Shown here in pieces: positions 40,922-59,793 of a stretch of DNA of 64,000 nucleotides. The notes beneath the pieces are model-generated. The model saw only the letters and a list, made by a program, of their open reading frames with translations, was not told the origin of the DNA and did no database searches. A program made the position numbers and the translations under genes. Positions within the stretch are counted from its first letter, which is position 1; the number at the start of each line of letters is the position of its first letter. The stretch comes from an uncultured Planctomycetota bacterium (GTDB lineage: Bacteria; Planctomycetota; PLA2; JAEUHO01): contig CAVVXN010000005.1 of the NCBI GenBank assembly GCA_963752285.1, forward strand, positions 864,001-928,000, written 5' to 3'.

Positions 40922-41647
40922 TCACAGATACGGTGCAACGCGCTGAAAAGTATCTGTGTCGTCGAGCGCCTTGCGCGCATCACTGGCGAGATCTGCCAGA
41001 GTGCGCGCCAGATGGGCAGTGCGGCTTCTGTTGAGAGAGCGCAACTCTTCGGACGACCTGGCATCGCTGACAGCTGGCAAGTATGTAGACCGGGCCCACT
41101 CTCGGAACTCGAGCCAGCGCGTCACGAATATCCTCCGCACGGCAGCGGCTTCGCCCGAAGTTAGCGACGGCCCGTTCTTTTGAATCAAAGCCTGCCGATT
41201 GGCCCACACCGCTCGCAGATACTCGTTGACGTCATTGTCATGGAGACTAACGACAAGCGTCTGGAAGCGATCAGCGCTTTGGAAACTACGTGATGCCTCA
41301 TCGAAGAGCTCTGAGCTCGAGAACTGCGGAGCCGCATAGTGAGCCACTATAGCCTGTCTTGTATCCTCAACATCTCCAAGAGGGACATCATTGTGTTTCT
41401 CACTGAGGTCACGAACACGCTCCTGCAAATCCCTGATAGTACCTTCTCGAGCTGCCAGCTCCTGCCGCAGTGTTTGCACTTCACTGTCCGCTATAGCACA
41501 ACTTAGGTGCGGCTCGGACGGTGCTCGTACGTTCGGATGGTCGAGCGCCGGCACGCCCGGACGCGGTGCTGCACCACCGATCCAGAGCGCCCCTGCGCCG
41601 AGACCCAACAGGAAGCTCACAGCGGATGCGAGGAGTACCCTGCCCAT
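40922..41647 (-). CDS. N-terminally anchored coiled-coil/helical hypothetical protein
   Basis: MGRVLLASAVSFLLGLGAGALWI TM; heptad-like EVQTLRQELAAREGTIRDLQERVRDL; starts 13 nt after the upstream stop. Confidence 0.75.
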   Translation of the reverse strand: MGRVLLASAVSFLLGLGAGALWIGGAAPRPGVPALDHPNVRAPSEPHLSCAIADSEVQTLRQELAAREGTIRDLQERVRDLSEKHNDVPLGDVEDTRQAIVAHYAAPQFSSSELFDEASRSFQSADRFQTLVVSLHDNDVNEYLRAVWANRQALIQKNGPSLTSGEAAAVRRIFVTRWLEFREWARSTYLPAVSDARSSEELRSLNRSRTAHLARTLADLASDARKALDDTDTFQRVAPYL

Positions 41648-41838
41648 GGTTGCTCCCGATCATGGATTGGACGAGACGGACGTCACGGCCCTACCCACCC
41701 TGAATTCCACCGCGACAGCAATGGGGTACGAGCACTCCCCAATCGTGAAAGAGTACGTGACCGTTCCCGTGGAGGTTGCGTTTCCTGTGCCACCTGCCAT
41801 GCGTTGCGCAACCATGCAAAGTATCGCGGGATTCGCGC

Positions 41839-43240
41839 GGCGGAGCAACATTTCTTCTGTAAATCCGAATTGACGTGATCAGTCCTCGTGCCTCGGCAGG
41901 TACCTTCGTCCGGTCTCCCACTCCTCGCTGATCTCCATGAGCACCGCGCTCACGAGCCGGAGGAGGGATGCTTCGTTGGGGAAGAGCCGCGCCACTCGGG
42001 TGCGCCTCTTGATCTGCTGGTTCAGGTTCTCGACGCCGTTCGTCGTGCGCAGGCGCTTTCGCTGCGCCTCGGTGAGGCCGAGATCGAAGACGGTGAAGCC
42101 GTCCGGCACGCTCTCCTCGGCCCACGTTGCGAGGCGGGGGGCCGTGTCGCGCCAGGTGGCCACTGCGGCCGCGAGCTTCTCCGTCGCCTCGCGGCGCGTA
42201 CTGGCGTTGAACACGCCGCGCAGCAGGGCGGCGGCCTTGGCGCGGTCGGCGACATGGGGCACGTAGGCCTGGGCGTTCTGCTGCAGGTGGAACTGGCAGC
42301 GCTGCCAGGCCACGCCGGCGAAGCGCGCCGCGAGAGCCGCGCGAAGGCCCTCGTGGTCGTCGCTGGTGATCAGCTGGACCCCGTGCAGGCCGCGGGCCTG
42401 CAGCGACTCGAGGAACGTCCGCCAGTGAACCTCGGCTTCCGAGAGGCTCACGCTCACGCCCAGGATCTGCCGGTGCCCGTCCTGGGCCACACCGACCGCG
42501 ATCAGGACCGCGCAGTCCCGCACCGAACCGCTGTGGCGCACCTTCTCGTAGCGGGCGTCGAGGACCAGGTAGTCGAAGCGGTCCAGGGGGCGACAGCGCC
42601 ACGTCTCCAGCTCGGCGTCGATCTCCGCCGCCGCCCGCGACACCGCCGTCGAGCTGATCTCGAGCGTCCCGCACAGCTCCTGGGTGATGGAGGCCACGCG
42701 GCGGGTGGACACGCCCTGGACGTACATCTCGGCGACCGCCAGGCGCAGCGCCCGCTCCGAGCGCTGGCCGCGTTCGAGGCACTGCGGGTAGAACGGCTCG
42801 CCGTCCGGGACGCCGCGGACCTGGGGGACGTCCAGCGTGATTTTCCCCACCCGGGTGGCCACGGTCTTGGGCTTGAACCCGTTCGCGTGGCCGCGCCGGG
42901 ACGTGGACCGCTCGTACGGGGCGGCCCCCATGAAGGCGGCACGCTCGATCTTCATGACCTCGTTGAGCAGCACGCGGATCGCCTCGCCCATGCCGCTGAA
43001 GCCCTCTTCAGCGACCACTTCCAGAATCCGATCAATGGACGTAGCCTGCGGGTGGTGGGTCACGCCGGTTCCTCCTGCTTGGTTGGCACCTGCAGTTGGA
43101 TCGGCGCTGATCCGCCACCTCTTTCCCCCCGGCGCGCTCGCGCCGGGGCCCTCTCGCTTCCGCTCGCTACGCTCGCTGCAGCGAGAGGGCCCCGGCTCTT
43201 CCGGTCGGGGAGTCTTTTACAGAACGAACGTTACACCCCC
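41839..43240 (-). mobile_element. Intact IS256-family insertion sequence (1402 bp) with 8-bp target-site duplication
   Basis: Imperfect IRs GGCGGAGCAACATTTCTTCTGTAAA and GGGGGTGTAACGTTCGTTCTGTAAA; ATTCGCGC at both 41831-41838 and 43241-43248. Confidence 0.95.
41879..43063 (-). CDS. IS256-family DDE transposase
   Basis: [64 protein letters not shown]. Confidence 0.96.
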   Translation of the reverse strand: MTHHPQATSIDRILEVVAEEGFSGMGEAIRVLLNEVMKIERAAFMGAAPYERSTSRRGHANGFKPKTVATRVGKITLDVPQVRGVPDGEPFYPQCLERGQRSERALRLAVAEMYVQGVSTRRVASITQELCGTLEISSTAVSRAAAEIDAELETWRCRPLDRFDYLVLDARYEKVRHSGSVRDCAVLIAVGVAQDGHRQILGVSVSLSEAEVHWRTFLESLQARGLHGVQLITSDDHEGLRAALAARFAGVAWQRCQFHLQQNAQAYVPHVADRAKAAALLRGVFNASTRREATEKLAAAVATWRDTAPRLATWAEESVPDGFTVFDLGLTEAQRKRLRTTNGVENLNQQIKRRTRVARLFPNEASLLRLVSAVLMEISEEWETGRRYLPRHED

Positions 43241-58021: not shown

Positions 58022-58029
58022 TTCCCAGG

Positions 58030-59793
58030 TTATTCCTTTCTCTGGAGACTGACATCAACGTCCACTATATCGCCTGGTGGGATCGTGAAGTCGACGTTGC
58101 CCGGCTCATATCCTGCATGAACCACGGAAACCCGGTAGGCGCCGCCCGCAGGGACTGCGTGTATGATCTCCTCCCGCCCGACAACATCCTCCAACTCGGA
58201 ATAGGGAACGGAGACCCTGCTGTTCCTGTCCACTTCCTCACCGCCAACACTCGTCAACTTCGTGTAGACTACAGATTCAGGCTGGATGTCACGAAATCCC
58301 CAGTCGGTCGCGATGTGCAGGCGGAAGCCCGTCACAGGTGGGAACCGCACAAGGACGCTTTCCGGTTGCTGGCTCTGAAGATCGACGGGAAACTCGTCGG
58401 ACGATCCCCAAGTTCCAGCATGCACCCTACCGGTGAGCAACCCTCGGGGCAACGGGCCATAGTGCCAGTGACCGTCTGTCTGGACACCCCAAGCCAGTAG
58501 GTCGTCGCGCCGTCCAGCGCTGTCATGCAGTACCAAGTAGCGGGCGCAACTCCTAGCGGGGGGTATGTCGCGCGAGGCCCACAGTTCAGTAACACTCAGG
58601 CCGGAACACCAGTCGTCCGGGCGGTGCAGGGTGAGCGGCACCTCGTCAGCGGTTGGATCGCGGACGTACTCGTCAGGCTTCCTGAGACGAAGTGTCGCTA
58701 TGACGGGCAGGTAGACCTCATCCGTGCTTGTCCAATGAATGAGAGCCTGCATGTGCGTGGGCGGCGCGGCGTCGTCGAAAAGGATGGCTTGGAGGATGGA
58801 AGGTACGCCCGGCCTGTAATAGGCGTTCAACATGCCAGTACTGCTGAAGATCACACGTCCGGTCAACAGGTCCGAGCGCGTCGACATGCCAGGTTCAGTG
58901 CCCCAAAACTCAATCCCAATCCCGTTGAGGGTTACAGGAAGCCGCGAGCGCGCGTCTACAGGCTCGAAACAGACGAGCCGCACGGGCTGGGCCACAACAT
59001 CGACCTCGTCCGCATTCTCTCCACGTGATTGCGCCCGAAGCGTGCTCCACCCGTCCGCATCTACTCGGATAAGGTACGGACCGGGCCCGACCCCCTCCGC
59101 TGTAAAGTCCCCCCGTTTGTCGGTGAGCGCCTTGGACCACCAGCCGTTCCCGAGCGGTAGAAGGCCGACGTCCGGCGCGTCGCGCCGTTGTGCGCGCGCG
59201 ATGACGACCACGTGAATGTCCGGGACCGGACCCCCCGAGGGAAGCCGAACCGTTCCGCGCACTTGCCTCCCGCGGCGCAGTTTGATAACGACAGGACCTA
59301 CGGGTACTGCGTTTGTGGTCGCGACGTGGACTTCGCCCATGAGGTAGCCGCTGGCGGCCGCGAGGACGCGAACCGGTCTGTCTTGCGGAGCACCGACCGT
59401 AGCGGAGCCGTGCGGGTCCGTGACTGCGCGCTGGATCACATCACGGTCCGTCATTCCCTGCCTTGGGGGGCTTGCCTCGAGCGCGACCTCTACGCTCGCG
59501 CCGGCTAGGGGGAGAGAGTGGGTGTCCTCGACACGCACGGTCAACAAGAGCATCCCTTGGACCCTTGGTTCGGAGGCGGGCGTCGACGCTCTCGGTTCTG
59601 GTACCCCGCCGGTACCATACAGGCGCGGCGGGGTACCGGGAATTACAGTAGGGCTCACACGCTGCACGGCGATGGGGCCGAATGTCCTGCGCGAGAGTGG
59701 CTTTTCAGAGAACGCCAGGTAGGCGCCCAAGGCGCCCAGAGCAGCGACGAGCGCAGCGACCCACACCCTCCTCTTGTTAGCTCCTCTGGCCAT
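58030..59793 (-). CDS. N-terminally anchored carboxypeptidase-regulatory-like repeat protein
   Basis: GGAGG RBS; TM VWVAALVAALGALGAYLAF; PLAGASV...TDPHG, VRGTVRLPSGGPV...TDKRGDF...GPGPY, GGAYRVSVVHAGY. Confidence 0.85.
   Translation of the reverse strand: MARGANKRRVWVAALVAALGALGAYLAFSEKPLSRRTFGPIAVQRVSPTVIPGTPPRLYGTGGVPEPRASTPASEPRVQGMLLLTVRVEDTHSLPLAGASVEVALEASPPRQGMTDRDVIQRAVTDPHGSATVGAPQDRPVRVLAAASGYLMGEVHVATTNAVPVGPVVIKLRRGRQVRGTVRLPSGGPVPDIHVVVIARAQRRDAPDVGLLPLGNGWWSKALTDKRGDFTAEGVGPGPYLIRVDADGWSTLRAQSRGENADEVDVVAQPVRLVCFEPVDARSRLPVTLNGIGIEFWGTEPGMSTRSDLLTGRVIFSSTGMLNAYYRPGVPSILQAILFDDAAPPTHMQALIHWTSTDEVYLPVIATLRLRKPDEYVRDPTADEVPLTLHRPDDWCSGLSVTELWASRDIPPARSCARYLVLHDSAGRRDDLLAWGVQTDGHWHYGPLPRGLLTGRVHAGTWGSSDEFPVDLQSQQPESVLVRFPPVTGFRLHIATDWGFRDIQPESVVYTKLTSVGGEEVDRNSRVSVPYSELEDVVGREEIIHAVPAGGAYRVSVVHAGYEPGNVDFTIPPGDIVDVDVSLQRKE

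Follow-up and report, generated by a model that had tools for sequence, protein, structure and literature searches.

A recurrent planctomycete cassette of a secreted cysteine-rich protein, an anchored beta-sandwich protein and a MauE-type oxidase, with a predicted growth-factor-type cystine knot

The window analysed here is a 64,000-nt stretch of contig CAVVXN010000005.1 (assembly GCA_963752285.1, positions 864,001 to 928,000) of an uncultured Planctomycetota bacterium whose genome is 4.64 Mb with 73% guanine-plus-cytosine (GC). An island at 40.9-60 kb, with 64% GC compared to 76% in the rest of the window, carries genes for three kinds of protein: secreted cysteine-rich proteins (S), membrane-anchored beta-sandwich proteins (A) and MauE-type membrane proteins. 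The initial annotation described five anchored paralogs here, two of them preceded by small secreted Cys-rich genes and two followed 9 nt later by MauE-like genes. All of the open reading frames (ORFs) that it listed are present, including the five A genes, whose products all start with a hydrophobic helix and exceed the PF13620 cut-off, and the S genes at 44264-44761 (8 Cys) and 51089-51625 (12 Cys) do precede A44907 and A51641, with gaps of 145 nt and 15 nt, respectively. The 9-nt spacing of MauE holds after A44907 (motif CGCFG), but the gap after A59793 (motif CGCLG) is 8 nt. The genes of these three kinds, some of them beside insertion sequence (IS) remnants, are the following:

44264..44761 (+), S44264: type II S, secreted, 165 aa, 8 Cys, ending in ...VKCGCC..., no tandem knot
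44907..46985 (+), A44907: long-class A, 692 aa, N-terminal transmembrane (TM) helix and CarboxypepD_reg-type beta-sandwiches, PF13620 38.3 bits, of the class that partners type II S
46995..47447 (+), MauE46995: MauE/DoxX membrane protein with K24, E56 and CGCFG, PF07291 35.5 bits against a cut-off of 27, E-value 1.4e-8
48871..50502 (+), A48871: A-like anchored protein, 543 aa, CarboxypepD_reg domain C-terminal, no S, no MauE, IS256 remnant upstream
51089..51625 (+), S51089: type I S, secreted, 178 aa, 12 Cys in two six-Cys units, the second being C124-C141xGxC145-C152-C174xC176
51641..53401 (+), A51641: short-class A, 586 aa, TM anchor and about five prealbumin-like beta-sandwiches (as estimated from the alignment)
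53631..55463 (-), A55463: short-class A, orphan, 610 aa, TTG start, IS256 remnant upstream
57641..58021 (-): MauE-like membrane protein, 126 aa, with K, E and CGCLG, E-value 1.3e-21 against our own profile, which includes this copy
58030..59793 (-), A59793: short-class A, orphan, 587 aa, following a truncated IrrE/ImmA-like ORF

The S type with 12 Cys consists of a tandem repeat that shows the Cys order of growth-factor cystine knots, C..CxGxC..C..CxC, a signature overlooked in the initial annotation, and the second six-Cys unit of S51089 is predicted to be such a knot. In the growth factors themselves, which act as receptor-binding signals, the disulfides join I-IV, II-V and III-VI, I-IV passes through the ring formed by the other two, and the antiparallel beta-hairpin fingers lie between C1 and C2 and between C4 and C5. 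At least one knot unit is present in 33 of the 34 type I S proteins and two units in 24 of them, while two units were found in none of 34,000 shuffled sequences. The six Cys residues are invariant in all 33 aligned type I units, C5xC6 spacing is kept in 55 of 57 units, the C4-C5 gap is 11-27 residues and the median Cys gaps of the tandem units are 18-3-5-16-1. The CxGxC element has to be read with some latitude: a central Gly is present in 25 of the 30 C2-C3 gaps that are three residues long, but the gap differs from 3 in 27 of the 57 units (range 2-5, with Gly or Pro within it in 38/57). The Cys count is even in 33 of the 34 type I proteins and 32 are acidic (pI ≤5.9). Two beta-hairpins are predicted in the structure model of a single unit (mean predicted local distance difference test score, or pLDDT, 82.9; strands 4-10/16-23 and 34-41/48-55), and neither of the two models of S contains a helix. 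When the single unit was used for a structure search of 48,161 chains, cystine knots made up 17 of the top 21 matches, and in a second-look search all nine matches were cystine knots. No Pfam or PDB sequence match to the cystine-knot growth-factor families was found at E-values up to 5-10, a result with which remote homology is still compatible. Type I S would probably form a true knot, while shared ancestry with animal growth factors is doubtful. We consider the type I unit to be predicted as built like a growth-factor knot, without filing it as a member of that superfamily, and type I S to be a credible bacterial version of the animal-type growth-factor fold.

The S, A and MauE genes recur together in relatives of the host. 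MauE genes of the host class (40 genomes in two families) were located by Pfam in 31 genomes and by our own profile in 40, the second batch being picked with a profile built from MauE proteins of the module. Regions were fetched around mostly short MauE matches, with the neighbours unseen at the time of choice, and genes were called with our own script; 50 of the 60 regions were counted, as the other ten had been chosen for S matches, were extensions of a fetched locus or were repeats. CxC is present in 35 of 49 MauE-like genes of ≤200 aa. Among these 35, a same-strand S gene is no more than 2.6 kb away in 21 (17 with the type I motif), A is adjacent in 22 and both are found in 16, in counts that include non-independent kin and one locus that supplies three rows. 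For the 14 MauE-like genes without a called CxC, the corresponding numbers are 3 for S and 4 for A. As a background, an S-like neighbour was found for 42 of 3,782 host genes outside the island, and an S gene within 800 nt for none of the 46 non-island host CarboxypepD genes. These neighbourhood counts support the earlier proposal of a recurring module consisting of a secreted disulfide-rich protein, an anchored beta-sandwich partner and a thiol-oxidase helper. Both enrichment at homologous loci and the match of S to known families were checked: the module genes are enriched, and no S protein reaches the cut-off of a family in Pfam or NCBIfam.

Both S-A-MauE and S-MauE-A gene orders were seen, and three loci (L044, L046 and L089) have anchored proteins of 270-330 aa in place of A. 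Loci with the module order are present in each of the two families of the host class, and in other Planctomycetota families (L131-L135) S occurs with A or alone. In 19 of 20 loci the cassette is poorer in GC than the sequence on either side. Six loci of relatives have, directly upstream of S, a gene resembling those for extracytoplasmic function (ECF) sigma factors, identified by Pfam Sigma70_r4_2 in L040, L046, L085 and L092 and by profile matches in L131 and L101; there is no ECF gene in the island of the window. The ECF-like proteins of L040 (10879-11586), L046 (11300-11962), L085 (4402-5127) and L092 (6255-7049) appear to have a second, C-terminal helix-turn-helix, and no evident anti-sigma gene accompanies these four genes. 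No description of the S-A-MauE module was found in the literature, searched mostly at the level of titles and abstracts, and we regard the cassette family as real, recurrent and, as far as is apparent, undescribed.

MauE46995 is predicted to be a DsbB-like disulfide-forming enzyme. According to the available text of a recent preprint, two MauE proteins, from two phyla, replace DsbB in Escherichia coli in a manner that requires CxC, and the MauE active site conserves F-G, one Lys in TM1 and one Glu in TM2 (10.64898/2026.03.05.709764). In our alignment of 15 short MauE proteins (14 from cassettes, with both window copies included), there is no variation at E56, C102, C104 or G106, and K24 is found in at least 90%; the conserved K, E, CxC and G match the active site as defined experimentally in that preprint. 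A disulfide-forming role of MauE, the "thiol-redox helper" of the initial annotation, has experimental backing from the same source. The copy at 57641..58021 has no Pfam match and was placed by motif and profile alone. VKOR and longer MauE fusions are encoded elsewhere in the host genome, and no DsbB match was found in this 89% complete assembly. Because the host already possesses VKOR and MauE fusions, the cassette MauE is additional, which fits the dedication to S that we infer for it. No DsbA-type carrier was recognised beside the cassette MauE genes.

The A proteins are less uniform than the term "five paralogs" had implied. A51641, A55463 and A59793 do form one family of 560-620 aa that aligns end to end, but A44907 and A48871 fall outside it, and pairwise BLASTP E-values among the five are at least 0.001. 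A short-class profile built from 18 A proteins (A51641 included) whose companion S has 12-18 Cys gives 167 bits for A55463, 133 for A59793, 31 for A48871 and 23 for A44907; because unrelated multi-repeat host proteins also reach high scores with it, the end-to-end alignment is the better evidence for the three-member family. The topology of A comprises a short basic N-terminal tail and almost no cytoplasmic part, with no cytoplasmic output domain. The host carries 51 CarboxypepD-type genes. A51641, which is not followed by a MauE gene, is the putative cognate partner of S51089. None of A48871, A55463 and A59793 has an S remnant upstream; A48871 and A55463 abut remnants of IS256, and A59793 abuts the truncated IrrE/ImmA-like ORF (59777-60325, minus strand, Peptidase_M78 E-value 0.004), which overlaps its start. 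The initial annotation mentioned neither these settings nor the ECF-like genes of the relatives. The pair formed by A59793 and MauE is flanked by a 3' and a 5' remnant of IS256.

S and A subtypes are paired across cassettes. The A protein is 564-620 aa long in 16 of the 18 cassettes with type I S and 692-715 aa long in all four with type II S; upstream of two further long A genes, a type II S gene or its IS-cut remnant was found. In a quick tree of A proteins, the four cassettes with an S of 16-18 Cys all fall, along with the orphan A55463, in one clade with support of 95 (sister 98). As S subtype co-segregates with A subtype, the cassettes travel and diverge as units, and this pairing argues against the free exchange of S implied by the word "exchangeable" in the initial annotation.

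Type II S44264 and its relatives end in VxCxCC and have no match to the type I unit. A genome of the same genus (G001) holds a close cassette in which S is 46% identical and A 30% identical over its full length to A44907, while MauE is truncated; AccC of the two genomes is 84% identical. Other secreted clients of 142-278 aa with 3-11 Cys are found in the MauE cassettes at L095 (7998-8684), L098 (5004-5711), L100 (6269-7185), L102 (3793-4560) and L138 (1927-2763). Since these fit neither S type, the cassette plan hosts further scaffolds. At L099 (2739-5378), a secreted 133-aa, 14-Cys gene with CC-rich spacing is followed by anchored genes, one with DUF1573. An IS-rich part of the host genome (C5:315199-316959) contains a small secreted 8-Cys gene (115 aa), with Cys spacing unlike that of S, followed by an anchored 463-aa gene; no MauE was called there. 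In genome G068, at L134 (3531-4133) and L135 (2917-3576), there are lipoprotein-type S proteins with two knot-like units and neither A nor MauE, which hints, if weakly, at an anchoring role for A.

The island itself contains one intact IS256 element plus fragments of IS256, IS21 and IS3. Features at its left end are:

40922..41647 (-): helical protein with an N-terminal anchor, 241 aa, encoded downstream of the IS256-split secreted ORF
41660-43588 (-): secreted low-Cys ORF, split by IS256 and followed by the anchored helical protein
41839..43240 (-): intact IS256-family element that splits the secreted ORF, with an 8-bp target duplication at 41831-41838 and 43241-43248

No homologue of the anchored helical protein was found, and together with the split ORF it is possibly another type of secreted-plus-anchored pair. 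The island starts just upstream of an intact comM/yifB gene (38818-40338, minus strand, TIGR00368 above cut-off); mobile elements are known to insert at comM. At 56203-56850 (minus strand), the C-terminal part of a helical protein, for which no homologue was found, is fused in frame behind an IS21 transposase fragment. Segments of 100-170 nt at 43638-43806, 47480-47590 and 48268-48372 have 94-100% identity to several sites in C5:302-336 kb and are probably the ends of another mobile element. A 23-nt tandem repeat (2.2 copies) is located at 44078-44128, just upstream of S44264 and beside an IS21 fragment. Outside the island, window positions 32001-33000 have a very high GC content (0.81) and an AT skew of 0.59. 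Two other low-GC islands of the host genome (C1:824669-829047 and C2:569052-573294) hold Rhs-like fragments with signal-peptide genes downstream, one of which encodes a CarboxypepD protein.

Our preferred reading, to which we assign a probability of roughly 0.5, is that the cassettes produce and retain a recognition protein that is hypervariable and locked by disulfides. S would be exported through its Sec signal peptide, and the cassette MauE, judging from its characterised family, would supply oxidising power, either directly or via a thioredoxin-fold carrier of the host, for the formation of four to nine disulfides. For the main S type, the predicted fold is a pair of minimal growth-factor-type knots in tandem, each with two variable beta-hairpin fingers. 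A, as the membrane-anchored cognate partner, would bind S and carry or present it in the envelope, where the fingers of S, by their variation, may determine which other cells or surfaces are bound. In the island, IS256-type elements may have stacked several cassettes, three of them without S. That type I S is a true knot and also takes part as a cognate ligand with its partner in cell-cell recognition or signalling is a tentative joint proposal. In its broadest form the suggestion is that Planctomycetota might encode genuine, diversifying growth-factor-type knots, two per chain as in a pre-fused dimer, with a private MauE, a cognate A that reads or presents them and ECF control. The correlation of S and A similarity over 18 cassettes (Mantel rho 0.28, p 0.0006) falls to rho 0.10 (p 0.14) when Cys residues are masked, and linkage of the two genes alone could yield the pairing of subtypes.

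Several other explanations were considered. S might be a released peptide signal that is sensed by A or by host fusions of an ECF sigma domain, a TM helix and CarboxypepD, with the upstream ECF-like sigma factor closing a feedback loop, in a bacterial analogue of growth-factor signalling. The six loci with an ECF-like gene directly upstream of S speak for this, as does the predicted fold, which is a signalling fold in animals, and five host CarboxypepD proteins have a TM helix near residue 195-207, one of them matching an ECF profile (E-value 1.6e-6). These five proteins (C2:505009, C3:374608, C5:285055, C5:945465 and C5:2098335) have an ECF sigma-like N-terminal part. Because A ends on the cytoplasmic side in a short basic tail with no output domain, the island of the window has no ECF gene and a common fold shows no function, we regard a signal with its receptor as unlikely. 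A little less likely in our view is that S is a secreted antagonist and A its immunity protein, with the S-less A genes as orphan immunity genes. A hypervariable gene followed by a cognate gene in a low-GC, IS-rich setting, three of five window A genes without S and the fast divergence between the same-genus genomes would all be expected of such a pair. Against this, nearly all type I S proteins are acidic whereas membrane-active peptides are cationic, no toxin or trafficking domain was found in Pfam/NCBIfam and there was no PADLOC match, a result that toxins of a new kind would also give, and A is a multi-domain protein of 600 aa whereas typical immunity proteins are small. The orphan A genes, moreover, abut IS remnants or a truncated gene, so the loss of S is explained without selection.

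A further alternative is a question of fold and overlaps the remaining readings: the six-Cys unit could be a CS-alpha-beta defensin, which also has CxxxC and CxC, or a two-finger (Argos/Tx33.1) fold. Defensins place CxxxC in an alpha-helix and have a C4-C5 gap of 4-7; the models of S have no helix, its C2-C3 gap varies and often includes Gly or Pro, and its C4-C5 gap is far longer. The Cys gaps of Tx33.1 (8,6,7,3,1,5,26,8,21,1,15) differ from the tandem pattern of S, and the single-unit structure searches list cystine knots and neither defensin nor two-finger folds, which makes another scaffold rather improbable. Finally, the island might be an IS graveyard in which members of a lineage-expanded CarboxypepD family have gathered by chance. 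The size of that family in the host and the many IS fragments of the island would suit such an origin, but relatives in both families of the class share the gene order, other Planctomycetota families have S together with A, and the CarboxypepD genes outside the island lack an S neighbour. That there is no system at all is thus very improbable: a chance pile-up is refuted for the module, although it still explains the presence of five A genes together in the island.

If the recognition reading is true, bacteria would carry out cell-cell recognition or signalling with a scaffold regarded as an innovation of animals, and theirs might even be related to the ancestor of that scaffold. Given a bacterial family with the CxGxC...CxC order, it would become testable whether the fold arose by bacterial ancestry, transfer or convergence, and type I S would offer natural minimal knots of 55 residues with very tolerant fingers. 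MauE, whose action as a general oxidase was demonstrated only recently, would gain from these cassettes a set of dedicated clients, and the cassettes suggest that planctomycetes have a variable recognition system, surface-bound or secreted, that has yet to be described.

The cassette MauE resembles that of mau clusters and the MauE proteins of the preprint in having CxC followed by F/L-G, a conserved Lys and Glu and up to four hydrophobic segments. Unlike MauE/MauD of the mau cluster, it is tied to one secreted client gene; no mauA/B/D, methylamine dehydrogenase or related genes were found among the 21 window ORFs scanned, and no MauD was recognised in the cassettes. The available main text of the preprint makes no mention of planctomycetes, gene neighbourhoods, operons or cysteine-rich proteins (10.64898/2026.03.05.709764). 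mauE is also reported from candidate Streptomyces clusters for ribosomally synthesised and post-translationally modified peptides (decRiPPter, PMC7794033), which likewise place it beside small predicted precursor genes without a mau cluster; in the planctomycete cassettes, by contrast, the clients are signal-peptide proteins of 140-185 aa with an anchored beta-sandwich partner, and no modifying enzymes were recognised. Like S, the Chlamydiota protein Wcw_0502 has a six-Cys domain proposed as a knot, described in the available text as "cystine knot-like" and as a motif never before described in a bacterial protein, but it is a type III secretion system effector, its spacing is CxCxxC...CxC-x5-C (residues 108, 110, 113, 153, 155 and 161) with no CxGxC...CxC order, and there is no sign of a relationship to S (PMC12038028).

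A is a string of prealbumin-like beta-sandwiches similar to NOMO2, a CarboxypepD_reg repeat protein and the best PDB sequence match of the A profile (E-value 3.7e-11), a generic match given that an unrelated multi-repeat protein of the window also matches NOMO2 (E-value 4.8e-5). Polymorphic toxin-immunity cassettes combine a variable secreted gene with a cognate downstream gene and are known for orphans and low-GC islands; the S-A-MauE cassettes differ in their acidic S without a toxin domain, their large anchored partner and their dedicated oxidase. The closest likeness of S is to the cystine-knot growth factors (PDGF/VEGF, TGF-beta/GDNF, NGF, glycoprotein hormones, DAN/sclerostin, IL-17 and Spaetzle), which have six invariant knot Cys residues and a conserved Gly and, in the available text of one paper, have not been identified in non-metazoans (PMC4079206). 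S shares with them secretion, the Cys order and two predicted beta-hairpin fingers, and they top both single-unit structure searches; it differs in being bacterial, in joining two units per chain, each about 50-60 aa long and with fingers that are much shorter, in having no sequence-level match to them and in being encoded in oxidase cassettes.

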